This document shows positions 15,900 to 63,674 of a stretch of DNA of 64,000 nt, one piece after another (the first letter of the stretch is position 1; each line of letters begins with the position of its first letter). The position numbers and the translations under genes were made by a program. Source of the DNA: Schmidtea polychroa (Eukaryota); NCBI GenBank assembly GCA_044892525.1, contig CM097885.1:16990001-17054000 (forward strand). The letters run 5' to 3'. The notes under the pieces were generated by a model. It worked only from the letters and a program-made list of their open reading frames with translations. It did no database searches and was not told where the DNA came from.

Positions 15900-15978
15900 T
15901 AAATAATCTGACCCTTCTACTGTAGTCTACAGTGAGCATGTAGCTACATAGTAGTCTGCAGTGAGCATGCAGCTACTT
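15626..15978. repeat. ~30-bp palindrome-containing repeats (TCTRCAGTRAGCATGYAGCTAC) interspersed with (AAT)n
   Basis: About seven units; one further unit at ~20346-20369. Confidence 0.85.
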
Positions 15979-25012: not shown

Positions 25013-25075
25013 GATTGGTCCGCATAAATGAAAAATTATTATATAAGCAGGCACCAAAATCATAAAAATCAGTGT
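25013..25075 (+). promoter_or_regulatory. Pol II promoter of the LTR-like element: inverted CCAAT, TATA and Inr
   Basis: GATTGG, then TATATAA at 25040 and TCAGT at 25069. The same order recurs at 29229-29290 and 52771-52820. Confidence 0.75.
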
Positions 25076-25533: not shown

Positions 25534-25671
25534 CGTGGAGTTGAGATACTCCATGTCATGGTGTGAGGTGCCTTCAGGAGCTCAGCCGGTGGACATGGAG
25601 TTTTTCAATCACGCAGCTAGATTGGGCCGAAATGTGAAGGCTTCTTCACGGGTCCAATCGCTGAAGGTGAC
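25534..25671 (+). ncRNA. Structured cis-RNA element A, copy A (homolog at 29756-29892)
   Basis: Two hairpins with compensatory changes between copies, plus loop GCCTTCAG complementary to downstream CTGAAGGT. Confidence 0.65.
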
Positions 25672-27792: not shown

Positions 27793-28056
27793 GTAACTCC
27801 AGCAGAAAGCTCAGTGACTATCACCTCTATTATTAGCATCATATGTGATTCTCTGTCATACCATCCATCTGTACATATGGATCTTCTGTTGTTTTGTGTT
27901 TTGAGAATGAAATACATTTATTCCTGTTCCATTTATTTATTTTCGTTAGTGAGGGTTAGGCATAAAATTATATACGGATTGTTTGAAGTTTGATGAGTGT
28001 CAGCCAATTTGCATTCGATCTACCGGTAATGAGAGATTTGGATAATACGAAACGAC

Positions 28057-28200
28057 GTAAGACCTTCTATCGGCCGTCTAGTGTGGGAAGTCGAGACCTC
28101 AGTAAGGAGTAGTTTTAAGGCAGAAGCTCACCTGCTTACTGGCGTCTCGCCGGCATAGTGCAGTACCAACGTGAAGCAGTTCACAGGCACTATGTTGGAA
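28057..28200 (+). ncRNA. Structured cis-RNA element B, copy A (homologs at 32401-32545, 48345-48490, 56387-56525)
   Basis: Strongly conserved non-coding block; stems covary across four copies. Confidence 0.65.
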
Positions 28201-28920
28201 TGCGAGTTATGCGGGGTCCTACTCAGTGTTGGAAAGAGGAGAGGATTTTTGGTAGAGTGGGCAATCAACCCTTAGACTAGCCACAAATGAAATAGCCAAC
28301 CGAGTAAGCCACCCCAGCACTTTTATATATGACAAAAATATATTCTTATGCGGCTGGGAAAAACATAAAATAATAAACTGAAAAAAATAATAATAGATCC
28401 GTATTTTGTACACAAAAGTTACATTAGACTATAAGAAAATTTAAATCGTGTGTTAGAAATAATTCAAGAGAAAATGTTGTCTTTAAAGGGCCAGGAGAGT
28501 TGAAGCACTTACTCTTGGAATAAAACACAGGACATATTTTTTTAAAGGTTCTTAAAAATGGTGTTTTAATTTTATGAAGTGAAACAATTTACATTGCATT
28601 TATTGAGAAATCAGTAGTCATTTTTTAATAAATACAATGTCAATTGAAAAGAAATCAGAGGTGAAAATCGAAAGAAGTTTTTACGAAACAATTTAGTTCA
28701 AGCAAATTTGAAAAGGTTGAAAATAGATTCTCACAACATTTGTCAAAATTGGTATTCGGTTGCATGACTAATGATGATAAATTCAAGTCGATAATCATAT
28801 TAAAAAACGATTCTGAAGGACAATTTTATAACAACAATTGTAGAAAAGACATATCCTAAAGGAATTTAGGTTTATTGTATTTTTAATATAATTTAATAGA
28901 AAAAAATGAATTTATGCTAC

Positions 28921-31900
28921 TGTTGGGCTGAGTCGAAAACATAGATTGGAGATTAGGACAAACAAGATGTTAAATAAAATAAAAATAAAGCAAACAAATT
29001 TAAAAATAAATTAGAATCAAAATACAAAAGAAACAATAATTAAAAAATAAGAGTTAAAACAAAGAATAAAAAATAAGAAAATTAAGATAAGAAAAATAAA
29101 ATAACGTAAAATTCAGTAAATAATGAGGAATTAAAGAAATAAACAAAAAATATAATAAAAATAAGAAGAAATAACCAAAAAACAGAAAAAGTAAATTAAA
29201 TTAGAAAAACTAAGCGGTACTCAATTCTGATTGGTCCGCACACATGAAAAATTAATATATAAGTAAGCACCAAAATCATTAAAATCATCGTTAATTCAAA
29301 AAATTCTATAGGTAAGCAAATTTCGAAAGTATCAACCACCGTTAATTCAAAAAATTCTATAGGTAAATCCAGAAACCGCAGCGACTCACAATCAACCGAA
29401 ATTAGCCAAAGCATAATTAGTAATAGGAATCAACATTCAAGGAACCATCAGGATTTGAAATCGAACAGACTATCTTCAAAGACGAACAATTCATTTTCGA
29501 GTTAGCCCTCAAACCGATAACGATAGTAAGGAGATCTTTTATTTTTGAAAAGTTAATAGTAATCATGGATATTTGTTAAATAATTAAAATTTTGGTTTAA
29601 TGCGATTTTTTCTTCATTTGATCCCTTGTAATAATTTTAACTAGGTTAATGATTTAAATGGCTAAATGTAATTACTAACAATAAATGAGTTATTTCAAAG
29701 TTTTTATGATTTGTTTTATGAGCTGATATCTTATGATTTTAATTCTTATGAGAAACGTGGTGTTGAGACATTTCATGTCATGGTGTGAGGGGCCTTCGGG
29801 AGCTCAGCCGGTGGACATGAAGCTTTTCAATCACGCAGTTGATTCGGGCCGTAATGTGGGGGCTTCCCCACGGGTCCGTCACTGAAGGTGACCTAAACTC
29901 AGTTAGAATAGCAGCATATAGGGTGCATAATAGATTCTAAATCAAAAGAAAAGTAAGATTTACGATTTCACAGTGATTGAGGGAGTTACCATCTTTGTAC
30001 CTACAATGACTCTACCACATTAAGCATCATTCTTCGAGAAATTCATGCTATCACCATCTGTAAATCGGAATCTCTAATGTTACATTAATAATTCGATTAA
30101 CACTCATCTCTAACGAAATTATCCAACGTTGAGCTCTCCTTTTATCCTTCGGAAAATGAACCGATTCGAATTTTCACCTTTACATCTTGATGATCATATG
30201 ATAGAATTCAATAACAACATTTACGTAAAAATGGAAAAAATAATACTATATGTATATCAATATTTTATTTAAGTACATTCATAAATTAATTTCCGACTAC
30301 CTGTGTAAACGTTCTCTATGTGATCCATTCCGAATGACCATAGCTGAAATGAAATTGATAGACATCTAGAGAGTTTAGAAATTCCATCGTTAAGTATATC
30401 CAGCTCTAGAGAAATTACGACTTGTACTAACAAATTCCAACATTGCAAGTTAGATGAGAACTGACAGACGATGAATACGGCACCTAAAATATTCTCTAAT
30501 ACCACATGTGAAGTCAAGTAGAAATTCCACCGAATAGCACACGTGCATGTATATATTGTAACTGCGATTAGCGATATCCATATGTGAGTATGCGCGAGAA
30601 ATAGCATAATCAATGAGCAACCATTCACAGTAGGGAATTTCACCATGTGTCACACCCGATAGAATTTTTCATCTTTGTGAATAGTAACGGGTGAGCGTAT
30701 TAGATAACAGCTACCATGAGGTGCGACACTCAGGTTGTTGATTCTCAGATTTTTGTTTTGGATAAAAATCGTTTGTGTCGTTATCGAGATAAATTGAATA
30801 ATCAATAGACGATTACCGAGGTATGAAAATCCTTAAAGTCCACTTATTAGAAAATTGTAAATTAAGTGTTATAAACGACAATAGAAATTTTAATTAATTA
30901 TGATAGATAATAATCGAAATTTTAAACCAAATGCTGTAAATAATAATTAAACTTAGACAGATTTACCCATATAACTCCTTAGGCATTCACGTATGAACAT
31001 CATCAAGTGGGAAAAGGGAAAGTTTGGGGGAAGTAACTAGCGCTGTATATTTTAATTTTTGATCTAAAACATGATTTAGCAATTTCAAGAGAGATTAAGG
31101 AGTTAATAAATTCACTATTGTGGAATTTTCATACTTAATTTGTATTCGTCAAGACAATGATATAGGCGATTAATTAATATTTTGTAAATAAGGTACAAAG
31201 TGATAGCGATCAACCGTCTGGGGGGCGGAATTTTCCTCATCTGCTTGTCCTGTTTTCTTCCCTTGCCGAATATCCGACAGTGAATAAACAACTGCATCCG
31301 ATCAACGATTTTGTAAATGTAGTATATTCTGGTTATCATAGTTTCTTCTTTACAGCTATCCAACATGCTACCGAATGCCAAACCTGTACTACGCCCTTGC
31401 TTCTCCTGTTCTGACAAAAATTCTATTATCAAGGATTTGCAGTCCCAGATCGGTCGATACAAAAGGAAAATCGACGAACTGGAAGGCATATGGTTCAGCC
31501 CAGTGCAAATGAAAGAGGTACAGAAGAAGTTGTACCGCAGTGAACATTGTCGTGACGCTCTAATCTCTGAGAGCCGTTCCCAACGGAGTCTAATAAAAGA
31601 GCAATCGGAAGCTCTGCACAAAGTGTACCTGCAGGCGACGACTACTCGAAAGATCGTCAGTATCCCCATCCATGAAGCGGACAACATCTTCCCAGTGCAT
31701 CACGATACCTCTTCCAAGTCATCGTCTCCCTTCAAGAAGTCCTGTCGAGAGTGTGTAGAGACCGAGCTCTCACCTAAGCACCCGGACATCATCTTCACCG
31801 GAACCAGTAAGGCGCCACCCACCATTGCATCTACATCTGCAGCAACCCAGAATAGTCAGACGGCATCGAAACCTAAGCGACGGCAACTATCGAGGGCCGA

Positions 31901-32665
31901 ACGCAAAAAAAACAGCGAGAACGAGCGACCGCCAAACAGCACGAACAATCGGCGGGCAACCCGATTAACGTCAACAATTCCCCTTCAGTGATCGATCTGA
32001 CAACCGGGATCCCAGGGCGAATCATCTCCGCTGCTGGCGTAACCTGGGAAGAAAATGCCTTAGAATTTTTCAATTTGGACGAATTGTTAGCCGACACCGA
32101 GTGGGAAAAATGAGAATCCACGGTGGAGTGCTCTCAGCGATCGCAAATTTTCGGACTACGTTATCAATGTTTTCTTTCTTTTTCCTTTTCTCATTGAAGT
32201 ACATTTGTGGCGTATAAATTATCTGTGTTTGGTGTCATAAAATTGAAATAAACCATTTTTCCGTTTTTATATATTTTCCTGTGCGAGGATGTTCGGTATA
32301 GACTGTTTGTGAATATAGGTGAAAGCTTTCAAGGTTCAATGAGCGTTAACCAATTGCATCTAATACAGAGATAGTGAGGGTATGAATAATATGAATAGGC
32401 GTAAGTCCTTCTATCGGCAGTCAAGAGAAGGAAGTCGAGGCCTCAGTAAGGAGTAGTCCTAAGGCAGGGGCTCACCTGCTTACTGGCGTCTCGCCGGCAT
32501 GGTACATTTCCAACGTGAAGCAATTCACGGGTACTATGTTGGAGTATAGGTTGTGCAGGGTTCTGCTCGGAGTTGACAAAGTGATAGCTAACATATATGA
32601 AATGAACAATCATCTCTTAGACGAAAAGTTAAAATAGTTGGAGTCAACCGAGTAGCGCCCCAGCA
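28921..32665 (+). mobile_element. Giant solo-LTR-like element, copy B (3745 bp)
   Basis: TGTTGGG...CCCAGCA termini; TSD CTAC at 28917-28920 and 32666-32669. Confidence 0.92.
31365..32113 (+). pseudogene. LTR-encoded unknown protein, copy B (frameshift in an A-run near 31910)
   Basis: Homologous to copies A, C and D. The conserved tail RIISAAGVTWEE...LDELLADTEWEK is in another frame, ending at 32113. Confidence 0.8.
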
Positions 32666-38110: not shown

Positions 38111-40737
38111 TTGTTGGATGACAGAGGAAGAGTTATTGAAAATTTCGAGCTCAGTATTATAGAACAGGAGCTAATAAATATCGAGTAAACATATATACAG
38201 AATGCAGATGAAGAAAATGACAGAAGCAGGCAATTCAACTCAATACCAATGTCAAATCTATTTAATAAACAATTTAGTTTTATTAACTCGTGTTAACTTG
38301 GTATAATTTGTGATATTAATGAACAATTTATTTCATGGATATATTATCAATGTCCTTACCATTTTATTGTAAATAACTTATTGGTGGTTTTATAAATATT
38401 TTTTGTTATGTATTTGTTTTTGAATATATTTATCAGTGAACACTTAATTATAAATATATTTTAAAAAGGGGAGGTTTCTTTTAAAATAAAAATAACTTAA
38501 AATAATAAAACCATAGAATAAAAAACAGCTTGAGCTCAAGCAAATAACAACTTAAGGGAAGCGAATGACAGGTAGTTTTGAACAGTGCAAATAACAGATG
38601 GAAAGAAGTAAATAATAAATAATTTTTCTGTAATTTCCTTCCAACAATAATTGAAATAAATAAGGAAACATGTTTGTATTATAATACAAAAACATATTTA
38701 ACAATAATGCAGTAATTTAAAGCATAAATTTATTTGTGTAATAAAAACATTTCTTTTTATTTACATAAAAACATGACAATAATAATAACGGCAAAATGAT
38801 TGAATTTTAACATAATAAGAAATCAATTAAATAAATTAATACAACGATATAGTTAATGCATTAAATAAATAAAATTTTCATATGTAAACGCGCATGAAAA
38901 ATAGTATAAAATATCGACCTAAAATCAGTAGTGGTCGCCCAAAAATTTTTACCACTACAATAAACTAAAAAGGGAAAATCCTTATTAGTTTTTAAATTAG
39001 AACAGAACACAAAAGAAACGTTCAAACTTCACAAGCAACACAACACGCATATAACATATTGTAATGACAGTTATATTTTACATTTTCTAACAAGGGTTTA
39101 CAACGTTCAGTTATCTCGTTTGGCGTATGTCGCCTTTTAAAATGGTTAAGAAACCATTGGTGGGTTACAGGTAGTCAAACTTCTTACCTTTAGTCTTGCT
39201 TTTAAATCCTAATGTATTATTTAAAGCTTCGACTATGTTGTAGCCTAAAAGATTGGTCAAATGGTAAATTATATTACAAATAAATCGTAATTTATGTTAG
39301 AAATTAAATTACTTTTATAGATCAAATTGAAAATTTAATGGATTCACGCCATAAATTTATTTAAACTATATTTTATATTAAAATTCAAATTATACTTAAT
39401 TGGTAGAGAATTTAGACATTTAATGGTAGTTAAATAAAGGATTTATCAAAATCATATTTTATATTAGAAATCAAATTGTATTTAAGCGGTAGGACAGATT
39501 AGACATTTAATGATGATTACAGTATGAAGTTAATAAAATCACGCCATGGTAACCTTTGTGTTACTATACTAATAGTGTTTTTATTAAGAATTTTATTAAG
39601 AAAGAAGACATTTGGCGATGAAGATAGCCGCAAAAGAGCAGGAAAACACGGCTATGGAGGAAATGATCCTGCGACAATCTGGAAGGATCGTAGAGTTGGT
39701 CAACAAAGTAACGGAACTGGAAAGAAATAATAGTGGCTGTAATGTATAGTTATTTTTTTATATTTCAGCGTTCACAATTAGGAATTGTGAATATTATAAT
39801 ATAAATTGCCACCATCTGGGAAATCCAGATTTTCAAAAAAACTATATAGCGATAATTTACTATGGTAAATTATCGCTATAGAAAATTGAAAAAATAAAAA
39901 AAATCGATAGGAAATTAAATAACAGTGATTATTACAAAGAACGAAATTAACGAAGAAGATTAATTAAAAGAAGATAAAGTTAAATAAATCTATTCTTAAA
40001 TTTAATACTGTTTCAAAGAAATCGCTATCCTAAAGTCTGTGATTTTTACGGAGAACGAAATCAACGAAAGACATTAAAAGAGGATAAAGTTAACCAAGTC
40101 TATTCCTTAAACTTAATCCTAAAAGGATCGTAAAAGAATAACTAAACTAAATATTAAAAGAAGATTAACAAGAAATAATCGGTGGTAAAGTATTCAAAAG
40201 AAAATTTGAACGCCAAACTAACGCGTGGTAAATATTAAAGCGAAAATCAGAGTGAAGCTAAAGTTAGTGGAAATATTAAAAAGAAAACCATAAAGAAACA
40301 GACGACAACGAAACATCAAAAGAAAATTTGAGAGCCGAAAATTTTAATTCTGTGCAGTCCGATTTTCTGAAGTATTATTTATTTTTGTTAAATAAAGTTG
40401 TAATTTAATTTAATCGTTATTGTGTATTTATTATTATCTTACAAACAAACTCAGCACGCACCCCGATTGTCCCGCCACAAGTTTTAACGGAGACTCTTTC
40501 GGGTGCTTCAAATTTCTTGACAATAACAACAATTTCATTCCACACACAAATATAATAAGAACATTCTATTCCATTAATTTTGAAAAACAAAAATCAACAA
40601 TTAACTAAACGGTAATTATTATTATTTATTTATATAACTAGTCGGTGGGACGGTATCCTTTGGGTACCCCATCTCAACCCTAGTGTTAAAATTAAATTAA
40701 CTTCAAATTTTAATTATATAACTATTGTAGAAAAAAA

Positions 40738-42207
40738 ATGGAACAAATACAATTGGCAAGGTCGACCTACGACAGCTACATCAAAATGAAGAACAATCAT
40801 GCCGGACAAAAAGTATACCGGATCAATGACAATCTCCAAATCCCAAATTATTTAAGAATTGATGAGCGAAAAATGAAGATCCAAATGTTTACGATCATGA
40901 GGATGTCAAAATTGCGATTAGCAGAAGAAGTCGAGATGTCAAGGAAAGAAGAATATCACCTACATGTGATCAAGGGTACAATTGAAGTACTGACGAATGA
41001 CAACAAAGTGTGTTGGGAACTTAAAAAATTTACGTCGTGGAAGCTGCAGAGAGACTTCATGTGGAGAATGTTACGAGCAGCGAATGAAGAAACAACCATG
41101 GTAGTGGAAATCAGAATCGAAAATGAAGCAAACGAAGTTCCGCAGATGCAGCCAAGTGCGAGAGAAGATCCAATGTTAATGAAAATTTCGAAAGAAATGT
41201 TGAAAAGGAAAATGTCGTTTCTCAGAAAGGAAATGGAATTGGAAGAAATCCGCAACAGAATATTGTTTATTGATGCAGAATATGGCACGTCTGAACAAGG
41301 AAAAATGGTCCCTCTAGCACTAGCGATTATGAATTATTATGGGAAATTAATAAAGAATATATACTTGACTCCAAGGGGAAAAATTCGGCATTTTAATTCA
41401 AGGATCCACGGAATCACAGAAGTAGCTAGCAGGAATCAATGCGATCAATATGTGGTAACAAAGGACATCCAACAATTGACAGTTGGCAAGATACTAGTGG
41501 GCCATGATTTACATGCAGAATTGCAATATTTGGGAATATGGGTTGAGCAATTATATGGCATTCGTGATTTGGCAGCGGCACCAGTACTCCAGAACAGGTG
41601 AATAACCAGGAAAGGAGAATGGTTCAAATTACAAACCGTAGTGAGAGAAATATCTGGAGAAGAAACACAAATCGGTGTGCATTCGGCTCTAGAGGATGTG
41701 AAGAGCATTCGCAAGGTATATCAGCGAGTGGAAAATCAATGGATTGATGATATACCAATGCCCAAAAACCTACCATCAAAGAAATATTCGTTGGAGGAAT
41801 ATAAAAAACTTCGAGAGGTACCATCAGCATCAACTGCAATAGCGGAGAAAGTGACACAAATTCTGGTTGACGATGTAATGGAAGCAGAACAAATTGACTT
41901 GACAAGCGAGGAGAATGTGGAGATGGAGACTGAAGATCCATTAATTCCATTAAAGTGAGCCACCGAATCGTCTTTGGAAATTTCACAAGAATGTGTTTCA
42001 GTAATGATAAGTGTTTCGATGGTAAGAATTCGCCCAACACTTGAGTATGGTCCAATGCCCGAATGTCGACAAGCGAGTAAAAGGAAAAACATTTCAAATA
42101 TTGATGTTGGGGAGACTGTAACCATCGATGGGGTAATCTATGAACGGGAAGAAACAATAATACGGTATCGGCATGGAAACAAACAATTGGAAATAAAAAT
42201 GAACTAA
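40738..42207 (+). pseudogene. DEDDh 3'-5' exonuclease (REXO4/ISG20-like) reading frame with two in-frame TGA codons
   Basis: ILFIDAEYG, IHGIT, ILVGHDL, IRDLA, HSALEDV motifs. ORFs at 40738, 41641 and 41974 share one frame. AATAAA near 42234. Confidence 0.8.
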
Positions 42208-44768: not shown

Positions 44769-45616
44769 TGTTGGGGTTCAACAAGAGAGGCACAAAAATG
44801 AGGTGAAAAATTGACAAAAACATCAAATTCACAAATAAAATTTAAAGTACAAAATATTAATTAAAAATCAAAAATTTTAGAAAAAATTAATATTTTCTGG
44901 GGGAAACTGGTATGGGCGGATGCTAAATAATGAGACGAGTTCAGCTATAATAAAATAAAATCAATGGGGGCCCCTAAAAGGAATAAATTACAAAAAACGA
45001 AAATTAATTAAAAATTAATTAACTAATGGAAAACCCGAGCTAATGGAGAACCCGAGCTAATGGGAAACCCGATACAATGGAAAACCCGAGCGAATTGATA
45101 AATCCAATTTTGGGAAGGCAATTAATTTAGTCGGGTAAAAAGTAATAAGCGCCGTCAAAGAAAATGAGCCAATTCCCTATAATTGAATTATACCTCCAAG
45201 AGGAAACCCGGGGGGAAATAATACCAAAAATAATTGGCAAAAATAAAGTCAATTACCAAACGAGTATAAAAGCAACTGGCAAGAAAACAAAATGCCAGTG
45301 GGTCGAAGAAAAGAAAATAGAAGTTTGACGAGAGCGAAAAAGGAAATATTAAAGTTAGTAGAAATCAAACCATTTAAAAATCGAACGTACCAGAAAGGGA
45401 CATCTCCCGTTGGAAGATCTACCCCTGCGTGAGATTTGTTGGCAAATTGAAAAGAGCAGACAAAACCTGATTGTATCAAGTGTGAGTAAACTAATACAAG
45501 TGTAAAAGTGTAACTGCATCAGTGTCAATAAAGATTTTGTGTTGGGTTATTTATTTATTTGGAAAAGAACACAAAGGAGTCAGACCGTAGTACCGACTTA
45601 CATTAAAAACCCAACA
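44769..45616 (+). mobile_element. Unrelated ~850-bp solo-LTR-like sequence
   Basis: TGTTGGGGTT...AACCCAACA termini, internal short tandem repeats, AATAAA near 45527. Flanks (GATA/AAAG) do not match. Confidence 0.6.
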
Positions 45617-48610
45617 AAAGTAACAGCCATATAGTGATTGAAGGAGTAGATGTATTAATCAAATGAAATGAAGAGTATTTGAGAGTTCACACAGTGATTG
45701 AGGGTGTCACACTATTAAATCGTCGGACCGTCTTTGCTAAGCTTGGAGTATCTCTATTATCTGGAAAAATCCAAACAATGGTTTATTGAATTCGTCTGAA
45801 AATTAGTGTCATCTTATAGGATATATTATCTGAGGGCATAATGATTGTGGCATAATTGCGAAAGGTACGATAGTCTATGCAAATGAGCAAATTCCAATCT
45901 TGGTATAGCATAGCGAGTAGTCGAATGTCAGCATTTTTTTTGAGTTGTTTTCCAGAGATCGTCGAGATATTCGGTAAAATCCCAGTCGATGTTGATGACG
46001 ATGATGAAATTCCATAATGAAAGCTGGCAACAGCATAGATCGGAAGTTTCCGTAACTAATCATACGGTGAGAATCATGCGACATATGGAATAACGAAATA
46101 TCTGTGAAACTAACATCAATTAGATAAAATCACAATATTCAGTTTCGATAATAGATCGACAGCATCAAAGTTCACGTTAGATAAGACAAAGGAGAATGCA
46201 TGCAGCACTAGTAAATCCACTCATGCACTAGGCAACTTTCGCCATGACTGTCACAAGCACACACACCGATTCATAACGAGCTAATCGACATACGAGTATA
46301 CCAGTAGCCAAGGCATAGCACTAATGATTTATTGGTAGATGAGTTCACACACACCACAAACATAGCGACCGTTATCGGCAAAGATCAAGCCGCTAAAAAT
46401 TCCTTCACTCACAATTTCATGTTATCTTGAGCAGGTAAAGCCCAACGTGAGTGAGAACAAACCTGATAGATTGGATCAGTGAACTTTAGATCCAAAACAC
46501 TAGTCGGATGATTTTTGGTTACTCCAATATTTAATGCCTTTAGTCGAGTCAAATTTTCATCTAACCCGTCTGGTTGATTGAATCGTTGTTTTTCGTTGCA
46601 TTAAATTAATAATAGTAATCGGCTAACTTATAATGTAATATTAAATTAATAGTTTAATGTAAATATATCTCGCTGATCTAACCATTTTACTAAACCAACT
46701 TTAACTTAATCTCAATCGTTTAATAATTCTATTTGGGTTTATCTCATTTACTTCATAATTTCGTTAAATGGGCGTTTTAAGTAACCATATAAATTTCAAA
46801 TCAATGATGATAAGCAATCCACCAAAATTTCGATTAGATGTTATAACGTTTTTTATTGCCAGAACATTATTGTCTTATTACTATTAGATTACTATTATTA
46901 ATATTATTACACATTATAAACCCTCAAACAACCAAGTATAAAAACTGTCAAGTGGGGAAAAGGGAGAAGAGTCTTGGGGGTAGCTAGCGCCGATATCGCG
47001 TAATTATCAATCTAAAAATGAAATCTAGTATTTGTAGTAAATTCTTAGAGTTAGTAAATGCACTCAATTGAAAGAATAAAAATCTCCCAGTTAATTCATT
47101 TGCATTCAAGTCACCTGTATTCAGCATTAGTTAAATTTTGTAAATCATGTATAGGGTAGAAACGAGTCGACATCTTAACAATTCCTTTACCATCTAATCT
47201 GTTCTTCTTTTTCTTTTGAATATCCAAGGTAGTAACTGAGTAGTGGCACCAAATGTATGACATTTCGAATATCATATCTTAATCTCACCTTTATAGCTAG
47301 CCAACATGATGCCAATTGCCAAGCCCGTTTTACGTCCCTGCTTCTCCTGCTCGGACAAAAATGCAATTATCAAGGACCTGCAGACCCAGATTGGGCGATA
47401 TAAAAGGAAAATAGATGAGTTGGAGGGCACATGGTTTAGCCCCACTCAAATGAAAGAAATACAGAAGAAGCTATACCGTAGCGAACACTGCCGGGACGCT
47501 CTAATCTCTTAGAGCCGCTCACAAAGGAACTTGATAAAAAAACAATCCGAAGCGCTACACAAAGTGTATCTGCAGGCGTCAACCACGCGAAAGATAGTCA
47601 GTATCCCCATCAATGAGGCCGACAATCTCTTTCCGGCACACCACGACACCTCTTCTAAGTCGTCGCCTCTTTCAAGAAGTCCTGCAGAGAGTGCGTAGAG
47701 ACCCAGCTCTCGCCCAAACAACCAGACATTATTTTCGTTGGAACGAGCAAAGCGCCACCTGCGATCGCTTCTACATCCACAGTACCTCCAACTAATCCAA
47801 CGACATCGAAGCCAAAGCGTCGGCAATTATCAAGAGCCGAACGTAAAAGGAAGCAGCGGGAACGAATAACCGCCAAACAGAATACACAACCGACGGAACT
47901 TCTAAGTGAAGTCAGCGCCCATTCGGTAGCAATAGGTCCGACATCAGGAATCTCAGGGCGAATTATCTCCGCCGCTGGAGTAACTTGGGAGGAAAACGCC
48001 TCCGAGTTTTTCGATTTAGATGAGTTACTAGCGGATATGGAGTGGGAGAAATAAGAATGCTCCCGTGAATTGACCCTATCGTCCGGAACATTGTCGAACC
48101 GAGTTTATCGTGTCTTTCTTTCCTTGTTTTTCTCTCATCCCGATATCTCTGTTGTATGTAAATCATCGGTGTTTTATATGTTTAATGTTACAATAAACAA
48201 TTTTATGTCTTTACATCATTTTCGTTTGTGAGGAATTCAGTATGACTGTAATAAATAGAGTTGAGTGTTCTCGAAATTCAAGGAGTATCAGTCAGTTTGC
48301 ACATAAACCAGAGGTAGTGGAGTGGATTGATAATTCGAATAGACGTAAGTCCTTCTATCGGCAGTCAAGAGATGGAAGTCGAGGCCTCAGTAAGGAGTAG
48401 TCCTAAGGTAAGGGCTCACCTGCTTACTGGCGCCTCGCCGGCATAGTACAGTTCCAACGTGGAGGAATTCACGGGTACTATGTTGGAGTATAGGTTATGT
48501 GTGGGCTCTGCTCGGGATTGACAAAGTAATGACGAGCATAATCGGAATGGGCATTCATCTCCTAGGCCAAAAGTTGAACTAATGGTGGTCAACCGAGTAG
48601 TGCCCCAGCA
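45617..48610 (+). mobile_element. Giant solo-LTR-like element, copy C (5'-truncated)
   Basis: Homology to copy B starts just after structure A; carries the ORF and structure B; ends CCCCAGCA. Confidence 0.85.
47306..48054 (+). pseudogene. LTR-encoded unknown protein, copy C (TAG at 47510, frameshift near 47665)
   Basis: RPCFSCSDKN...GTWFSP...; KPKRRQLSRAERKRKQRER...FDLDELLADMEWEK. Confidence 0.8.
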
Positions 48611-50289
48611 TTACAAAACGCATAAGACGAATAAAAATATCATATTATCTTAATAAATATTATCCAATAAGATATTATTTTATTTTTTGTAACAATGTAC
48701 CCAAGACGTATATATACGCTAGCGGATAACAATACTCGCCACTGAGGAGCGCATTTCGATTGACGAAATAAACCACTTAAGAGGTTAAATTCAAAATCTA
48801 TTGTTTCACTACTATTTCACTTTGAAAAAGATTTACATGACGATGTATTTTTTAAAGCCAGAGCATCAGAAGTAAATTTTTGGGAGTATTTTTGTCGAGA
48901 GAAGTATTCAAACAAAAAAATGTAATGAATATATCCGTTTGTTTTGGATCCACTTATTTATGTTGATCCGCCCTTTATTATTTAAACCATACAAAAACGA
49001 ACCATCGTTCCTGTCTTACAGACTTGTACAAAACAGATTCATTAAGACTCATTGTCAAATTACACTCATGTATTTGAGAAATTGGAACAGGTTATGATTA
49101 CACAAGTATCACATTAGAATAATAGTTTTTATTCTTTCTATTTCTTTTCCCTTTCTTATCATTAAAAATTTAATTGAGTTTATTTTGTTTTTAATTTTTT
49201 ATATTAATTTAATGGTTTTTTAATTAAAATTTATTACATTTGAAGTTTTTTCTGTAAATCAATTATTTTATTTTATAATGCCAAAGTCGATGGCAAATTA
49301 AAATAAGTTTGGCAACCCTGTTATAAAATATATATTAAACGATGAATTGTGCAAATTAGCTTAATAAAAATTTAATTTAATGTTTTTTATTGGTTCGTTC
49401 TTATATTAAATGACTTATGAAATCAAAGAAATAAAATTATTCAAAAGCTTCTGAAGCTATAACCTCCTTTGAAGTAACCTCTCACGGACAGAATTTCTAG
49501 TGCAGTAGTATATTGGAATTAGCTAGGAACCAAAAGTTACAAATTTGTAAAAACACCACTGCAGACAAAAAAAATCTATTTTTCTATAATAGACCTTATT
49601 TGATGTATTTATTCTGCCTATAATTGGTGAGCTTCGACAAAGCAGTATAAAATTACAATTCTTCGCGCGAGACATGAAATAAGTGTTATAATAATGAATA
49701 TATTAAAAATGATAAATTATAATAATTAAATACAATTTAATAAATAAATTATTTTTTCATCTAAAATATATTATTATAGTATTTCCTAAAGTGACAATTG
49801 ATAAACTTACTTTAAAAATTTACTATTGAGGCCGATTTTCATTAATCTGAAAATAATTTCATCTTCAGAGCTTAAATTCAGAAAACCATTTACTAAAAAT
49901 TCTCGCAATTCAAATTTGACTAATAAAATTAACAATTTAATCATTACCTAAAATTTAATTTTTGATGCAATATATGTAATGGCGGCATTAATGCCTTAAA
50001 TTATTTAAATTCTTACCTGTAGCAATAAATTTAGGTCATATAGTAAATATTAAAATGAAAAAAAATCCGTGTAGTAAAACAAATATGTAAATTAAATTTT
50101 TCTTTCTAAATTGAAACATCATTTAAAAATTAGTTATTTTAATATAAAATATGTATTATTTTGACTTTAAATTTTTCAATATCATACAATCCATTTAATA
50201 TAATAATTACATTTAGTATATTAAAATTAAATTTAGAAATAATATATATAAAAATTGACATTTTATTTTAAACATTTATATTAAAACTC

Positions 50290-52272: not shown

Positions 52273-55200
52273 TGTTGGGCTAAGTTTTGAAGTAGAGAAA
52301 AACTGGGTTAAATCGGGAAACGAGCCGCGAAAAATATAAACGAAATATAATAAAAATAAATCCCCATCAAACCTCAATAATAAATAAGGAAACAATAAAA
52401 TACCTATAAAAAGAAATAAGAATAAGTGATAAATAAATAAAGCCCTTAAGAATTAGAAATAGGACATAAGAGAAATGAGTTAAAGCACAATAAATAAAGT
52501 AAAAATAGAATAAGCAAAAAAGTAAGAGAAAATAAACGAGAAATTAAAGCAATAAATAAAAAATAAAAATATCTTTAAGTTTAATTAAAACAAAAATTGT
52601 ATTATGATAAAGTAGCAGTGAACCCGCAGAAAAAATAGGAGAAAAATAAGAAAAATAGGAAAATAAATAAAATAATAATAAGAAATAAGTTAAGTTATTA
52701 AAAGCTAATATATTATAATGAAAACATAAAATAATAATAAATATTAAAAATTACAACCTAACTAAGTCCTGATTGGACGAAAAATAGTATATAAGAAACG
52801 CTAAAAATCAGTAGAGTACCACTTTAACCAACAACTCTACAGGTAAAATTTGTAAAACTTATCACGACCACTTTAACCAACAACTCTACAGGTTTCAAGA
52901 TTTTATTCACAAACTACTACAGAGGACTAATCCAAAGAAGACTAATTTGAATTGAGGAAGAAACATACAGCGAACTATTTACAGCATTATACAGGAAAAC
53001 CTTAGCCGATTTAACCCAGTTATTTAATCTCAAGGTATGGTAGGATATTTTTAGGTTTGATTTTATGATAGATATGATGGAATTTAATAAATATTTATAA
53101 TTGATATTAAATTTTGTAAATAACAAGGAAAATTTGTTCAATAAATTTATTTAAAAACAGAACCTGCCTTTCTTCAAGGAGCCGACGACTGTACCTTCTG
53201 ATGATTTCAAGTATGATGCCAAATGGAGAGAGTAGCCCCGAGGAATATTATGATATGTAGCCAAGAGATGTTGCGGATATTGGATCAGGAGCAAGCGATA
53301 ATAGTGGATACGATGCCAATACTGTCAGGGAATATTGGGTTGGAAAATGAGAAAGCATCATACTTGGAACTCAGACGATATGGTCGCCGGTAATTTGATT
53401 CATTTACTTGATTATTATTTGTTCCATTTTTATTATTTATATCTGAAATTTGTTTTTAAATTGCTGAATGCGAAAGAGTCGACTGGTCCCTCGTGATCGT
53501 CCGAGAATGGCGGCAGAGATGATTGCCTTCTTGGGTGTGTTATGAGGGGTGTAGAGGCTCAGTAGGTTAGGATAACAGGCTGAAAGATGGAATTTCTTCA
53601 CCGAGCTCGCATCGTTCTTAGTAAGTTCCATAGCTTCAATAAGTCACATCGATACTTCTAATAATAGCGGAGGAGATTTAAGTTGAGAGCCGAAGACAGT
53701 TCGGAGTTGAGATTGACAATTTCATCAACGTATTAAGAATCCACATAGTTCGGCGAAATTTCTTCATAACGGTCAACCCGTCAGTCGGGATAGTGAACGA
53801 GAATGTTGTCGACGAAGCTTGGAGTGTAAATCCAGTAAATCTCGTAGAGTATTGTTTTCCTCGGTATACTAGTAGAATCTGAACCGTCGATATGTTAGCG
53901 ATGACACCCGTCGACGAATGTACTTTTAAGTTAAGTGATTAGCTTCGAATCGCTGATAAACATCGTCTTCCCTGAAAAGAATGTAAATAAGTAGGAGAGG
54001 TTATCAGATTACTCACGGAAAAATGACAGAAATCGCTGACAGATTTATCAATTGATCACTGACTGAATTGAGGAACCACGATAGGAGTTATCAGTGACTT
54101 GAGAAATGAATTGCCGGCAGATGATAACTGATCGAATTGAATGACCAACGAAACCAGATAATACCGATAATAAATTTCCACGAGGAATAATCTAATTGAC
54201 GCGTGGGTAGACCTTGTCTTGTACTGGCTGCGTAATGATCGAGGCAGATTAAAAATTCTAGCTTAGTTATTGCTCATCGGATTACTATGTACAATTCCAG
54301 GGTGATACTTGTGAACACTTAGTGATAATTCCAATATATTATGTAACTGTACACACCTACACACTCCATCGTGAATAGTCTCCCAGTAGGGTAGCAGAGT
54401 ACTCTTGGCATTGGAATTTGGCCGTGATGTCACAATTACATAGTAACCTACTCGTAATTCCCTGAGTTGGTAGGCTGGTGTGTATGAACAACAGAGCAGA
54501 TCGTCTCCACTGCGATTTAATACGACGTCGAATTTTCTCCACTATCACATAGAAATAGACACACATGAAAGCTCAAGGTGGAGATACTCCAACAATGCAT
54601 ACCGACTCAGTTAATAAATATAAGAAAATGCACACATCTACAGGTAGGCGTCACTAGGGCGACAGAAGTAGCGCGATTTTTAAAAGAATTTTTGGAATTT
54701 AAATTATAATATAATTAGCTAATAGTATATATTTAAAGTCCTTTATGTAAATTCGTAATCACAATGCATCATAAGGAGAGATAAATTTTTCCTGCGTTCT
54801 AGCAATACGGAGTAGGTACAAATTGATAAACTGAAATCCCCAACAATCGGATGCTATTCTTTTCCATTAATTACGAACGTAAATATGTTTGACTATAGCA
54901 GCCGGCTAAAATGCAACGAGTATGAGTTATCCGACCCGAGGGTAAAGATAGAGTTTTCATCGAACAAGTTAAAAGCGAGGATTCCCCGTTTTCTTCTCTC
55001 CCTCATCTTGAATCAATAAATCAATCGGAAGGTTGTTTCCTAAATGAGTGAATGAGGAGTGCTGAATTGTGTGAAAACAAGTTGTTTTATTGTATGCTGT
55101 GGCGTGGTATGATGAGTGAAATCTTTGAGTTTAGTGTCTCGATAGAATTTGGAACTAGATATATTTTAACCGTTAAAACGGATTACTAGAGAAAACTTAG

Positions 55201-56631
55201 CTGAGACATTAAAAACATGAAATTTATGAATCAAAACACTTCGTGAAAATTACAGAATTATAACTAATGAATTCTTGTACTGGATACCTTAATAATTATC
55301 GCAATTCGGTTTGAACCATGATTAATTTTCTAGATGACAACACCATCCAATAACGCCCAAGAACTTCGTCCGTGTTTCTCTTGCGCTGACAAGAACTCGG
55401 ACATCTCTCAACTTCATTTATATATAGGGGCCCTCAAGAAGAGGATAGATCTTTATGAAGGAACGTGGTTCTCCCCGCCACAGATGAAGGAGGAAAAAGC
55501 TAAGATCCTCAGGTTAGAACATTGTAGGGACAGCCTACTAGAAGAAAGCCGATGCCAAAGGCTCACAATAAAAGCACAATCAGAAGCCCTCCATAAGGTC
55601 TACACGGAGGCAGAAATAGCAAAGCGGGTACGCGAATATCCCGTATTGGATGGATCGAATGTCTTTCCTCTCCATCACCAGTCATCTACAACTCCCACCT
55701 CAGCTTGTCGAGGGCACGGTTCCCATCTACCGCCCATCCCAGCCCCAGTGCTGTCAGGATACTTACCTATGAAAGGCGGTCCATCTGACCCAATTCTGGC
55801 CCCGATCCTAGGGGCACCCACAGTATCTACTGCTGTTGGAGGAAATCCGCCATCACGCAAACGCAAACACCCAACTAGGGCCGAGAAGACTAAGAAACGA
55901 AGAAATGCAATGAAGGCACTCGAGGCTTCTTTGTTCGCAGCGCAGACGACAATAGCAGAGATATCCACCACTCATACGATTCCCTCGAAAGAAGTTTTCC
56001 GTATCATTCCAGCTAACGGCATCAAGTTTATCTCGGATTGTAGATTGCCGGTAGACATCGACGAGTTAATTGCCGACGGAGAAAACTTCAACTAAAACGG
56101 TTCGCGAGTGATCCTGAATGTATTTCGAGTCGTGAATTGACTGATAAACTTCGTTAATATTGTGCATCCTAACCGTCCATATGATATTGTATTAATAAGT
56201 GTGATGATGTTTGTTTATTTTCATTTCGGTATTAATATATTTTGTCTATTTAGTTCTGTTTTATAAAGATTTTCATATGTTTGGTTTTTTGAGAATAAAA
56301 TGGTTCAGTATTACGGAAGGAAAGCTAGTAGGCTAACGGTCGTTCCCTTGGACCAGGATCGAACCAAGACTGAAACATGAATAAGGGTAAGTCCTTCTAA
56401 GGCACCAGTGAACCTGAACCGCGAGCGGGCTATCAGTAGTCCTAAAATAGGGGCTCACCTGTTAGTCAGCTCCGACCCGTATGGGCACTACCAACGTGGA
56501 ACATCACCACGGGCTCATGCGTGGGAAGATGTAAATGATCATTTGGCGTATGCATGGGAGGTGTCTGAGCTAACCAATGCGGTCGGTATGATAATGATGG
56601 TGTGAGTTTTCTTCTCCCTCATATGCCAACA
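52273..56631 (+). mobile_element. Giant solo-LTR-like element, copy D (4359 bp, divergent subfamily)
   Basis: TGTTGG...CCAACA termini; TSD CAAC at 52269-52272 and 56632-56635; same internal layout as copies A and B. Confidence 0.92.
55334..56095 (+). CDS. LTR-encoded unknown protein, intact copy (253 aa)
   Basis: RPCFSCADKN, GTWFSP, EHCRD, QSEALHKVY, RKRKHPTRAEKTKKRR, RII.A.G, DIDELIAD. Acceptor TTTTCTAG abuts the ATG. Confidence 0.85.
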   Translation: MTTPSNNAQELRPCFSCADKNSDISQLHLYIGALKKRIDLYEGTWFSPPQMKEEKAKILRLEHCRDSLLEESRCQRLTIKAQSEALHKVYTEAEIAKRVREYPVLDGSNVFPLHHQSSTTPTSACRGHGSHLPPIPAPVLSGYLPMKGGPSDPILAPILGAPTVSTAVGGNPPSRKRKHPTRAEKTKKRRNAMKALEASLFAAQTTIAEISTTHTIPSKEVFRIIPANGIKFISDCRLPVDIDELIADGENFN

Positions 56632-58459: not shown

Positions 58460-61305
58460 CAGTGGCGTCGCTAGGCGGGTGCGGGAGGTGCGGACACCAT
58501 CTCAGATGGGTAACACCAAATAAAAAAGTTCAAATTTTACAGCGCAGACGTTGCTCGGTTCAGTCGTATTTCATGACGCTTGGTATGAAATGGGATGACG
58601 TAGATGTGCAGGTGTTTACATACTCATTTTTCTATCAAAACAGTAAATTTTGTGAAACTTGTAATTAAAACTTGTAAACTAACCTGTTTAAAGTAAATTA
58701 GAACAGAACGTAATTTTTATAACAGATGAACAGCGAAGAAAGGATTATACTCATAAAGTGAGTATTACTAGTAATTAATTACTGCTCTGATAATGACAAC
58801 ACGCACATATTCGTTGATCTTCTGTGAGGCCCCTCAATTGGTATCGGTACATAGCTGCTGTTGCTTTCCTACAAAAATCCATTTGCAATGCATGATGGGT
58901 GGATTTGGCTGCCCACTAATTATATATTTGTACTCCTAATTATTTACCAATTGTTGATTTAATATTTTGGTTATTATATGATTTGCTAGCGCAGAAGAAG
59001 AAAATAAAGGGCCTTCAAATAAATTGTGCATGTAAATAGTTATAATTCAACTATTTAAATATATAATATTATATTTTTATTGTTCAAGATAATTCGATCA
59101 TGCCACATAGAGTGGACAAATCTAAACGGCTTAGTGGCTGCCAGCAGCGAAAAGCTAAAATGAAAAGGTGTGACTCACTAAAACCACTGCCAGGATCCAT
59201 GATGCGATATGTTAAGAAACTAGATGATGGCAAGGGTTCATCAAAAGACGTTCCTCAGTCTACAATCGATAATGATTCCTCCGATGCTAGCAGTATGAAT
59301 TCTATAGAAGAGCAAGTAGTTGACGAGATTGACGAGATTGACGACGAAATACAAAAAATATACGTGTATGATTTGGAAGCGACAGAGAATGATGATAACG
59401 TTGATTCAAACCAAGATACTGCAAATTTGATGCTGAGTCAGGTTAATGAGAAAAATTGTAATATTTTATCTGATGCTTCTTTCTGGAATATACCAGTTCC
59501 TGATAACTTTCGGATTGAAATTATCAAAAGAGGGATTCCCTCGTTTCAGAACATGGACCGTTTAGTGTTGTGACAAGGCAAGATGAAGAGACTAAAGGAG
59601 ACGTGCGCAAGCTAAGCAAACAATAGTTCTACAAGATGATACCAAATTGGGAGAAAATACTGCGGTCATGGATGGTTTATTCACCCGTCAATGAGAAATT
59701 ATACTGCTTTTGCTGCAGACTGTTTGCTACTAATGTTACAGAAACAACATCCAAATTTATTACTGGGTTTGATAAGTGATGGAAACTGAGCCCGAAATGA
59801 GATAATCGTGAGACATCAGAAGAACATCTAGGTTGCCTTGAAAAATGGAAAACATTTGCAGCAGGACTTAGATAACACAAAATAATTGATGCTGAAAGTA
59901 TTTCTATTATGGTCAGGGAGAAGAAAAAGTGGAGGGATATCTTGCACAGATTGCACATTGTTTCTTTCTAAGCAAAATCTGGCATTTTGTGGCCGCAACG
60001 AAGATGAAGCTTCATTAAATAGAGATGGTTGGGATGCTTTCTAAACATGACCCAGTACTGAAAAAACACCTGATGAGACTAACGAGGATTACATATACAG
60101 TAAAAGCATCAGTATCTTACCTTTCACCAGAAACGCAAAATCAATTTATAAAAGTCCTGGCAAATCAAGTAATGGAGATTCTTGTCAAGGATATAAAAAC
60201 TACGAGGTATTTTGGAATTAAGTTCGACAGCACACTTGAAATATCACACACTGACCAGATGTCTGAGGTTATCAGATATGTGAAAATCCACAATGAGAAA
60301 GTTGAAATGAAGGAAGTGTTCTTTGGATTTTTCCCTTTAAGTGGGAAAAAATGCTGATGACCTTAGTTCTGACATTCTTACAAATCTAAAATGCGACGGA
60401 CTTGATATAATGATGTCCATGGAGGGGTTCAGGCCATTCTGAAAAGAAAGAATAAGAAAGCGATTTTTAATGGGTGCGTGGATCATTCAATGAACTTGTG
60501 TGGCCAACACTCTTTTGGCGAAAATGCTTCATGTGTTACATTTTTTGATACTATTGAGGGAATATTTTCATTCTGCTGCTTCCACTGATCGATGGGATGT
60601 TTTGATTGAACACTCTGGAATGTCGGTAGGTTATCAACAACACTTTGGAATGCTCATTATGCTGCTGTTAACCCAGTGAAAGATAAGTTTGATGAATGTA
60701 TAGCGGCGATGTGATCCTAGTGAAAATTTGGACACAAGGGATACATCACAAGATCTTTTAAATACTCTCGGTGATTTCATGTTCACCTTTACCTCTGGGC
60801 TGATCTACTTGAAAAAGTCAATCTTACTCAGCATTACCAGCAGACTAAAGGCTTAACTCTTGACAATGTTGTAACTAGGTTAGAGGCCTTATAATTGTTT
60901 CTGTTCGAGAAACGCAGTCACTTAGTTGAGCATGCAATAAAACTGGGACTTCTAAAATCAGACCAATATGGAATTTCGGTAGGAAGAAGATTAAGGTTCC
61001 AGAAGACAATGTCGGGGAACAACTGAGAGACGCTGGACTCTCTCTGCGAGAAGAAAACAGTAGGGAGATGCTGGAATGTATTGATCGTTTTCATTCTGAA
61101 CTCCAGATGAGATCAAAAGCGATCAAGGAAGAGTCTACTTTCGGCAAGTCAAGAAGAGTTACTGGTATACATTCCCAAATTAACCTCTTTCTATGACAAG
61201 TTATCTGAAGATGAGCTTTTAAAAGAAATACCGAGGTTTAGAAGGCACCTAAAAGCAGCTGATATTGATCTCCACAAAGACATGGACTAGTCCAGCTATG
61301 TCCAA
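58460..61305 (+). mobile_element. Decayed hAT (Tip100/ZMYM1-like) transposon, 3' part interrupted
   Basis: 5' end CAGTGGCGTCGCTAGG; KRLSGCQQRK start; LYCFCCRLF; SYLSPETQN...FDSTLEISHTDQMS fragments. Confidence 0.8.
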
Positions 61306-62640
61306 TAGGGTGGGTCGAATGTTAATAAATTTTGAGTTCAAGAAAGGAAACATGGTTAAAAAGTTGTATTTTGGTATAGAAAAATCGAATCAAACCATTT
61401 TACTTAGATTTATGGACATTTACTGCTCCCAACTTTTCTCCGAAAATGCAGTTCAACATAAGTGTGAAAACAATGTAATTTGGCTAGTGTCGGAATGTGT
61501 TTTGCGCCTTTGTCCATATTTAGATGTAGCTTTCTTAAGAGCTTATAAGTATATTATTTACTCTCTTGGGCTGAGATAGTATATTCTGTGTCCTCATCCC
61601 GCATTGAAATATATCCTGACAACGTCAGTGATTAGGAAGGGCCAAATTTGAATTATCCTTTTCAAAGACAAAAATCAACTTTCGAAATTATTTTTTATTA
61701 AAAACATCCAGCCAAAAGTTTAGAAATGTATTAGCGAGGGCATAAAAAGAAGTCACATGAAATCAGCTTTGCTTTGCACCTTGGGCAATTCCTTCCTTGA
61801 TTTTTTACACAGTAGTACCATACCATGTCTGGACTTGTGACCAAACACTTTGCAACTGGCAGAAGAAACATCTTTGATGGCTCTTTCAACGGCTTGAGAA
61901 TGACAGGGAAATTGTTCTAATGTAATTTTCATATTCATCTTCAATTCATGACCCAATATATGAGATAAAAGAGGGGGAGGCGTCAAATTACATTTTGTCC
62001 AGTCAATCATGTCAACATATGATGTAGCAGACGACTGAAGAAAGACAGTATTCTTGTCCATAGTGCGAATCACTTCGGAAGGGAGAAAATTTTGTCTTGC
62101 AGTTATGATTTTTTCTGTTGCAAACTTTCTGATTTCTTCATCATCATCACCAACAGCAGCTAGGAGTATATTTTCTGGATGTGAGAAGTAATTGTTGTTC
62201 TGAATGACAGGAAAGATGATTTCTTGGTCTGATGGATCCAAATCCTGCAGAAGTTGGAGCATATAAAAAATATTTCTTGCACCATCTTGGCATGACGAGT
62301 GAGTCTTTATATAAAACCATGACGGTCCATAGAAATTGACAATAAATTTCACTATTCGCATGAGAGGTTCAGATGGAGCAGTTTCGGACATATATAGTCG
62401 CAGAATTCTATTAGCTTTCGTTAGCCAGCGACTGTGATTCAAATTTCCTGGTTGTGCCATTTGTAGAAAAGGGACATCCTTGTTGTTGTGGTACCCTTTC
62501 TGGACTGCCAAGCATACTCTGAGGAAATACAATTGATCAGTGTTCAATTCTTTCTTGACATTTTCACTAATATCTACGACCTTTCCAGGAAGGGACATAA
62601 AGGCTACTACGGGCTTGTCTTTTGGATCAAAATCAAGAAC
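61306..62640 (-). mobile_element. hATm-like transposon 3' portion with transposase C-terminus (61753-62598)
   Basis: TAGGGTGGGTCG terminus at 61306; HSRWLTKANR, HPENILL and FPCHSQAVER motifs. Confidence 0.8.
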
Positions 62641-62649
62641 GCTTCCTAT

Positions 62650-63674
62650 TTCACCAACCTGCGGCCCATTCTATAATTTTGTGCGGCCCGTTTTGTATAA
62701 ATATTTATTGTAATGAAATATCAAATATAAATTTTTATTGTAGTAAAATATCACATGTGCGTTCAAAATTTTTTTTAATGTGTATTTTTTTATTTTTTTT
62801 CTAAAAAACGGTTACTTTTAAGATTTCTTTTTTAGTTTTAACTATCATGCATAAAATGGTTGCTATGATTACAAGTAAAAAATTGTTTAAAAAATCATTA
62901 TTATTTCATTTATAATCAAATATCATTGAGTAAATTATTTTTAATTTATTTTAATCTTAGTCTTTTATTAAGGACTTTCTATCCATTATGTCTGATAAGA
63001 ATAAAAAAAGAAAATTTGAAGATGAAAACAGACAATTTCAAATTGAATGGGAAAATTTATATTTTTACACGCAGGTGAAGGAAAACGCTATATGTTTAAT
63101 TTGTCGTCAATCTACCTCAATATTAAAATCATATAATTTGAGACGACATTTTGAACAAAAACATGATGATTATAAAAAATATACTAAAGACGAACGAAAA
63201 GTGAAATTAGATACACTTAAAGCAAATCTGAACGCAGAACGAAATATATTTCATAAACAAACAATTCAATCTAATGCCATCGTTAATGCCAGCATGCGAA
63301 TATCACACATTATTGGGAAAAAATGAAGCCCTTTTCAGATGGTCAATACATCAAAGAATGCCTTATTACTGCAGTTGAAGAAATTATTCCAGAAAAAGTT
63401 AAGATTTTTGGTCAAATCAGTCTATCACATCAAACTTTATCACGAAGAATTGATAACAATTCAACTGATATTTGTTCTACGCTGGACATGGTTTCTAAAG
63501 AGTTTGTTTATTTCTCACTGGCTTTGGATGAGACAACAGATATTAAAGACACTGCATAACTTGCTATTTTTATTCGAGGTGTTAATAGTGAAATGAGTGT
63601 AACTGAATAACTTCTGGAAGTTATGAGTTTGAAAGGCACAACTACCGGAAAAAATATACAAAAAGCTGTCGTAA
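62650..63674 (+). mobile_element. hAT Charlie/Buster (GTF2IRD2-like) transposon 5' portion, decayed
   Basis: CCAACCTGCGGCCC subterminal motif; KRKFEDENRQF, CLIC...YNLRRHF...KH, KPFSDG, SLALDETTD motifs with a frameshift and stops. Confidence 0.85.

Follow-up and report, generated by a model that had tools for sequence, protein, structure and literature searches.

Protein genes are known in the U3 region of a few retroviruses, and retroviral regulators are typically expressed from a separate short spliced message. Among retrotransposons, the closest described relatives of the locus analysed here are the planarian Burro/GYPSM1 elements, gypsy-like LTR elements of more than 30 kb with env between gag and PR, RT-RH-IN and accessory ORFs (PMC6431247, accessible part). 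We analysed a 64-kb stretch of DNA from Schmidtea polychroa (64,000 nucleotides; the window), which holds an intact gene inside the LTR of such an element.

This element shares with Burro/GYPSM1 a length above 30 kb, LTRs, env between gag and PR, RT-RH-IN, and ankyrin, MATH/TRAF and RING ORFs; the BIR-RING ORF described there is found here in a third family. The available text of PMC6431247 gives polyprotein domains and internal accessory ORFs but no spliced LTR gene, which its Fig. 2A might nevertheless draw.

In complex retroviruses, small basic proteins made from spliced messages bind structured RNA (PMC12789967, accessible part). Like Rev, Rex, Rec and Rem, the LTR gene encodes a small basic protein on a predicted fully spliced message, with structured RNA in a region that unspliced RNA keeps. 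It differs from them in that no sequence or fold homology and no evident export signal were found, and the RNA binding of the LTR protein is predicted. The hosts of Rev, Rex, Rec and Rem are Retroviridae, where, according to the same source, the genes lie in the internal region or at the 3' end; here the host is a Ty3/gypsy element and the gene lies inside the LTR, downstream of the putative cap. MMTV sag and HIV nef also have coding sequence within the terminal repeat, but they are located in U3 and read from the 3' LTR (PMC12789967, accessible part).

Gene D and its relatives in the window

Four homologous ORFs were found in the window. ORF D runs unbroken from ATG to stop over 253 amino acids (55334–56095, + strand), while A, B and C are each disrupted at a different site. 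An earlier note on this DNA had placed the gene within 'LTR-like elements'; each copy instead belongs to one solo LTR of a 30-kb Burro-type element, and the ORF lies inside the LTR itself, as a spliced gene.

52273–56631, + strand: solo LTR D of a Burro-type giant Ty3/gypsy element, with TG...CA ends and a 4-bp target-site duplication (TSD)
55334–56095, + strand: LTR gene D, with a predicted helical hairpin (about residues 15–100), Pro-rich linker, Arg/Lys-rich helix (173–192) and acidic hydrophobic tail
24675–28319, + strand: solo LTR A of a sister family, with its own 4-bp TSD; gene 27045–27792, frameshifted
25293–27035, + strand: intron 2 of LTR A, with a twin hairpin at 25536–25666
28921–32665, + strand: solo LTR B of the sister family, with its own 4-bp TSD; gene 31365–32113, frameshifted; intron 2 at 29526–31355
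45617–48611, + strand: LTR C, 5'-truncated, start approximate, adjoining an unrelated LTR; gene 47306–48054, with one stop and one frameshift

The frameshifts lie at about 27450 in A and about 31905 in B; copy C has a premature stop at about 47510 and a frameshift between about 47650 and 47670. Within the window, each broken copy is thus broken at its own place, as the earlier note had claimed, and the lesion of B recurs in an identical duplicate 36 kb upstream (L035), which looks like a block duplication. Decay after insertion, also proposed there, is borne out by a wider sample, in which 11 of the first 30 motif-bearing copies, about a third, were open end to end when read by eye. Both codon strings quoted for GRYKRKIDEL were recovered, in A and B, and all five of the motifs listed for D (PCxSCxDKN, GxWFSP, EHCRD, QSEALHKVY and FPxHH) are present in D as well as A/B/C.

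LTRs A and B are duplicated together 36,232 bp upstream (G000:C1), with identical protein matches, apparently as one block. Elsewhere in the window, Polinton/Maverick-type genes occupy 610–20152 and include a protein-primed DNA polymerase B at 1189–5613 (minus strand), a second one at 16520–20152, an integrase with a chromo domain, an adenovirus-type protease and probable capsid ORFs. An unrelated 0.85-kb LTR (44769–45616), preceded by a purine-rich tract, abuts the truncated 5' end of copy C. An ORF pair at 40714–41958, assigned to none of the elements, has a weak RNase_T exonuclease match (E 0.045), and fragments at 59067–63326 and 20989–21933 resemble hAT-type DNA transposons (a weak DUF4371 match and a Spin-doc zinc finger).

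The host element and its families

Searching the 781-Mb genome at the protein level, with 150 of 6,481 first-look candidates scored, revealed many copies; these frequently formed pairs on one strand with about 26.4 kb between them. One such pair corresponds to the two 4,241-bp LTRs (99.9% identical, TG...CA) of a 30.6-kb element with a 4-bp TSD; the gene ORF stands at the same place in both, and LTR D is about 95% identical to each. The ORFs of this D-type element encode RING, gag, viral fusion protein, PR-RT-RH-IN, ankyrin and TRAF (MATH) domains, and a Pfam analysis of its 13 ORFs placed gag, PR, RT, RH and IN in gypsy order. Gag carries zinc knuckles, and a Monjiviricetes_fusion match (E 5.6e-73) precedes PR, so that env lies between gag and pol. 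None of the 13 ORFs has a BIR domain, which is present in the third family. The D element fits the description of the Burro type in the accessible part of PMC6431247.

The primer site that follows the 5' LTR is complementary to the host tRNA-Pro(TGG). At two further loci (L167, L168), this primer site, a RING ORF and gag lie downstream of A/B/C-type LTRs, which identifies A/B/C as a sister family. Contigs from runs X1 and X3 (one study, one contig each) join across the empty site of D, suggesting that this insertion is recent and polymorphic. The genes for the primer tRNA of these elements form a large tandem array with a 475-bp period from 130.90 Mb of G000:C1 (L207), and a tRNA-Pro(TGG) pattern has 2,190 matches genome-wide.

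A degenerate pattern for the shared core motif matched at least 2,574 genomic sites, against 0 for the control. Exact primer-site junctions number 636 genome-wide. The first 30 of these comprise 7 of D type, 5 of A/B/C type and 18 of a fourth family, and 9 of the 12 D-type and A/B/C-type genes at them are open. Every copy of the gene examined in context sits in an LTR.

In the BIR-bearing third family (probably Burro1) the LTR is 5.8 kb long and contains two ORFs, both of them preceded by a splice acceptor and followed by a poly(A)-like signal. The second ORF is homologous to D (a small local profile search gave E 2e-8 and 1e-6); the GTWFSP turn and the basic helix are retained in it, but CxxC, His-Cys and the acidic tail are lacking. 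Judging from donor and acceptor positions, the start codon of this homologue would be split by a long intron (L099 4566, 8611; L100 8732). The first ORF, of about 120 amino acids (L099 7930–8295; L100 8090–8452), ends in an AT-hook-like motif (E 0.17–0.5, below the Pfam cut-off) and has a pN/pS of 0.30, indicating purifying selection. It had no database homologue, and neither the D element nor the tested A/B/C LTRs contained a counterpart.

The fourth family is abundant and about 15 kb long, with 1.65-kb LTRs (L162/L174/L175), and carries only gag. It is probably non-autonomous, and the stretches tested contained no RT and no match to the LTR-gene protein profile. It keeps the promoter, donor, intron stem, 3' block and primer site. 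Absence of the gene with retention of the cis elements is the pattern expected of a trans-acting product and cis RNA elements; pol is absent there as well. The gag in L073 is that of the short-LTR family, not that of A/B/C. An LTR of the short-LTR family starts at window position 63675, and the family forms a tandem array with 13.5-kb spacing at C1:77.27–77.32 Mb.

Predicted transcription unit and conserved RNA structures

The features of LTR D that bear on its expression are as follows.

52273–52817, + strand: A-rich U3 (about 0.5 kb), with an inverted CCAAT box at 52769 and a TATA box at 52788
52818–52842, + strand: predicted exon 1, 25 nt; putative cap at about 52818; exact repeat at the 3' end of intron 1
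52843–52891, + strand: predicted intron 1, 49 nt, GT-AG; missing in 5 of 22 LTRs
52892–53034, + strand: predicted non-coding exon 2, 143 nt; fused to the ATG in L003 and L004
53035–55333, + strand: intron 2, GT-AG, 2.3 kb in D; acceptor abuts the ATG; precisely missing from both LTRs of one element
53470–53570, + strand: long RNA stem in intron 2, candidate response element (z -2.6)
56294–56299, + strand: AATAAA, putative poly(A) signal of the short message, about 200 nt past the stop
56385–56560, + strand: conserved structured 3' block made up of two bulged hairpins; lies past the poly(A) signal, at the 3' end of the LTR

The CCAAT/TATA arrangement also occurs in 22 of 30 stretches examined. 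Judged from the DNA, transcription would start about 30 nt after the TATA box. The cap would then lie about 2.5 kb upstream of the ORF, which argues against U3 and would place the gene in R or U5, and 3.8 kb would separate the cap from the primer site. Because the gene, its introns and its poly(A) signal are all downstream of the putative cap, one LTR would constitute a complete cassette.

Splicing is evident in DNA from one integrated element with a 4-bp TSD, in which exon 2 is fused directly to the ATG in both LTRs. The precise absence of the 2.2-kb intron 2 from both LTRs shows that its splicing is real. Exact exon 2–ATG junctions number two genome-wide, both from this single element; its intron 1 is missing from the 3' LTR only. 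Searching the other two families for intron-less copies by their junction patterns gave 0 matches and 1 chance match, with no true case. Loss of intron 1 could reflect splicing or deletion between direct repeats. In 17 of the 22 LTRs with a detected promoter (30 stretches examined), the 3' end of intron 1 carries a repeat of exon 1; 15 of these 17 repeats are perfect, with 14 distinct unit strings that start 26–33 nt past the TATA box. The units (52818–52891 in D, likewise in A, B and other LTRs) are lineage-specific yet self-identical, which suggests renewal at each reverse transcription. The simplest cause would be strong-stop DNA from an intron-1-spliced 5' end jumping onto an unspliced 3' LTR.

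The putative poly(A) signal is well kept. Among 29 young D copies, 26 have AATAAA between +193 and +202 past the stop, and AATAAA or ATTAAA lies 141–167 nt before the 3' block at 27 of 29 A/B/C-type loci (those with both anchors, out of 40 examined, some of them duplicates). In foamy virus, too, an LTR splice donor and poly(A) site need different use at the two ends, and poly(A) addition in the 5' LTR is suppressed by U1 snRNP (PMC3694450, accessible part). Foamy virus differs in having no protein gene in R/U5, and the donor-like GTAAG that follows the poly(A) signal here is not conserved in the third family.

In runs X1 and X3, contigs extend over U3 and the introns as DNA would. Those of X5 (guessed to be RNA) touch only U3 of D, and those of X7 (guessed to be RNA) make no contact with D. 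X6 (guessed to be RNA) has contigs that cover both ORFs of the third family's LTR at about 85–90% identity; no GT-AG joint is listed among them, and contig depth cannot map ends.

The D intron stem is kept in a distant D-type LTR whose intron aligns in two short stretches only; among three sequences, 1 of its 36 pairs is doubly changed. Intron 2 of A/B/C-type LTRs contains a twin hairpin that hardly varies, with double changes in 8 of its 49 pairs among five LTRs, and identity in the rest of intron 2 falls to 46–57% between A and B. Long stems of their own occupy a comparable position in D and in the short-LTR family (z -2.6 and -7.0). The stems differ in sequence from family to family, and in sliding-window folding they are not outstanding everywhere (B z -1.0, D z -2.6). 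The 3' block adjoins the primer site and has double changes in 14 of 23 consensus pairs (10 sequences, four families). Both the intron stem and the 3' block lie outside the predicted short message and inside the genomic RNA.

Rfam gave no match anywhere in the window, and a ribozyme reading of the 3' block was dropped. By eye, the loop region of this block's first hairpin (56452–56459) looks like a portion of the primer site and shows partial complementarity to the LTR 5' end.

Selection, protein fold and proposed role

The earlier note's proposal of purifying selection, with differences mostly at synonymous sites, holds: pN/pS among A/B/C is 0.072–0.079 with synonymous sites near saturation, and dN/dS, run on the unrepaired frames, is far below 1 for B–C. 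Pairwise pS/pN values are 0.92/0.073 for A–B, 0.76/0.056 for A–C and 0.70/0.050 for B–C, over the first 104–105 in-frame codons from the conserved Pro-Cys, unrepaired and excluding the stop codon of C. Corrected dN/dS is 0.026 for B–C (bootstrap 0.010–0.064, from the 773 of 1000 replicates that stayed unsaturated) and undefined for the saturated pairs A–B and A–C.

Constraint varies along the protein. In open copies (5 of D type, 8 of A/B/C type), mean pN/pS is 0.10 and 0.075 for the hairpin, 0.12 and 0.18 for the basic helix, and 0.39 and 0.41 for the linker, respectively, so that the hairpin and basic helix are most constrained and the linkers least; the acidic tail has a pN/pS of 0.11 in A/B/C-type copies. 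Three of these eight A/B/C-type and four of the five D-type copies were chosen by a non-coding pattern, the remainder through the protein search or from the window. Among young D copies, the ratio of non-synonymous to synonymous changes is 28:22 for private and 13:24 for shared changes, only a weak excess among the private ones, which counts against the reading proposed below. Purifying selection between element lineages is supported. We are highly confident of the gene anatomy and its selection taken together.

AlphaFold predicts, for the monomer, two long helices meeting at the GTWFSP turn (mean pLDDT 82.6 over 110 residues). For the whole protein (mean pLDDT 54.8) it adds a disordered linker, a basic helix and a short acidic helix to the hairpin. 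The basic helix has 10 K/R within residues 173–192 and is kept in three families. The acidic tail (6 D/E in 22 residues, with a hydrophobic xxLL-type pattern) is conserved in D and A/B/C. A by-eye check of the three-family alignment against the consensus gave no clear conserved leucine-rich export signal. Zinc binding by conserved Cys/His, as earlier proposed, does not hold in that form: CxxC and His-Cys are kept in D and A/B/C but absent from both sampled third-family homologues, so zinc does not define the family, and a zinc site specific to D and A/B/C is possible.

Database searches returned no match to an ordinary host gene. Pfam gave no match for D (E 0.1) or a distant D copy (E 1), only weak coiled-coil similarity. 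No match was found among 5.8 billion proteins (searched at near lengths with D, the three-family alignment and the AT-hook-like ORF), and 0 among 1.84 billion representative proteins. PDB sequences gave 2 weak coiled-coil matches and nothing better, and viral and metagenome contigs no homologue. In the ESM Atlas all scores were below 0.9; the nearest named cluster, delta antigen at 0.78, is a lead at most, and nothing was found for the AT-hook-like ORF. Fold searches gave no E below 0.001, generic helical hairpins at Z below 10 and no DNA-binding fold; the absence of a specific fold match does not show that the fold is new. Between-lineage purifying selection, decay after insertion and the absence of a host-gene match make it most likely that the protein is needed for element propagation, in keeping with the earlier note's view of a need during element replication.

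We propose the following scheme. Transcription would begin at the LTR promoter, about 30 nt after the TATA box, and full splicing with use of the LTR-internal poly(A) site would yield a short early mRNA for the LTR protein. As nearly all copies keep intron 2, the packaged genome must retain this intron and read through the LTR poly(A) site. The helical hairpin is predicted to oligomerise, and the Arg/Lys helix to serve as nuclear signal and as binder of the intron 2 stem, which would be a selective target since only unspliced RNA carries it. Acting in the nucleus, the protein would let intron-retaining full-length transcripts accumulate and leave, as Rev and Rex do. To this overall reading, a spliced and selected LTR gene whose product lets full-length RNA accumulate and exit the nucleus, we assign a probability of about 0.42. 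That the product is a trans-acting nuclear regulator of the element is probable. An RNA-level switch, Rev-like by analogy and not by homology, has a chance that we put somewhat short of even.

Several observations weigh against a Rev-like product. No homology to Rev, Rex, Rec or any Pfam family was found, and no clear leucine-rich export signal was seen by eye. The acidic tail of D and A/B/C, which the third family lacks, is closer in appearance to an activation motif. The family-divergent stems could serve packaging, dimerisation or splicing through Gag or host factors; intron 2 loss is known from one element, and the cap and poly(A) sites are read from DNA. In a rival reading the protein would activate transcription from the LTR promoter or counter its silencing, in the manner of Tat, Tas and Tax or of transposon anti-silencing proteins; here the hairpin would dimerise, the basic helix would provide nuclear entry or DNA contact and the xxLL-type acidic tail would recruit coactivators. 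An early spliced gene would suit such a factor equally well, U3 is A-rich, the BIR family's LTR has a second selected ORF with an AT-hook-like end, and BURRO1 is repressed by SMEDWI-2 (PMC8532177, accessible part). However, the third-family homologue has no acidic tail, no DNA-binding fold was matched, and conserved RNA stems restricted to unspliced RNA would be left unexplained; we regard an activator as unlikely, if deserving of serious weight.

Burro elements also carry host-acting genes (PMC6431247, accessible part), and a role for B-IAP is cited in PMC13465017 (accessible part). A host-directed accessory factor for survival, cell cycle or stress, comparable to the IAP, TRAF and RING genes, could be expressed from every solo LTR by virtue of its site, which would agree with the number of motif matches relative to primer-site junctions (at least 2,574 versus 636) and with the third of sampled copies still open. 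Yet most copies decay after insertion, and the other accessory genes have recognisable host homologues where the LTR gene has none, making this role quite unlikely. The basic helix and coiled coil, the 3.8 kb from putative cap to primer site and the structured block beside that site might instead suit a structural or chaperone component of the particle, packaging the 30-kb RNA or aiding an unusually long strong-stop transfer. We consider this improbable, given that Gag already has zinc knuckles, that the basic stretch resembles a nuclear signal and that a separate short spliced message is typical of regulators. Least credible is a passively carried host exon whose low pN/pS was inherited from its gene of origin: nothing specific favours it apart from the general capacity that these elements have for taking up host genes, while synonymous sites are saturated between element lineages with the protein kept, no host or database homologue was found in the searches, and all copies examined in context lie within an LTR.

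In the accessible running text of the Burro literature we found no description of an LTR-internal ORF or intron, and a prior mention is quite possible; the accessible parts of PMC8532177, PMC13465017, PMC13238120, PMC11410931 and PMC13524379 make no mention of an LTR-internal gene. Burro elements are already known; from what we found, the LTR-internal spliced gene appears undescribed. To our knowledge, a complete spliced and polyadenylated gene past the cap inside an LTR is a layout that has not been described for Ty3/gypsy elements. Such a layout implies that a retrotransposon regulates both the retention of an intron and read-through past a poly(A) site, the problem that Rev-type proteins solve in Retroviridae. 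We suggest tentatively, and with less conviction than for the regulatory role itself, that Burro elements independently evolved a Rev/RRE-type early-to-late switch, with the regulator wholly in R/U5 and solo LTRs regulating in trans. The function can be tested directly, given how well RNAi works in planarians, and a related element has been reported to support stem cells. Solo LTRs, usually seen as non-coding scars, here form a family of more than 2,500 potential gene copies in a planarian regeneration model; if the proposal is true, thousands of them would be free-standing expression cassettes that regulate intact and non-autonomous elements in trans.
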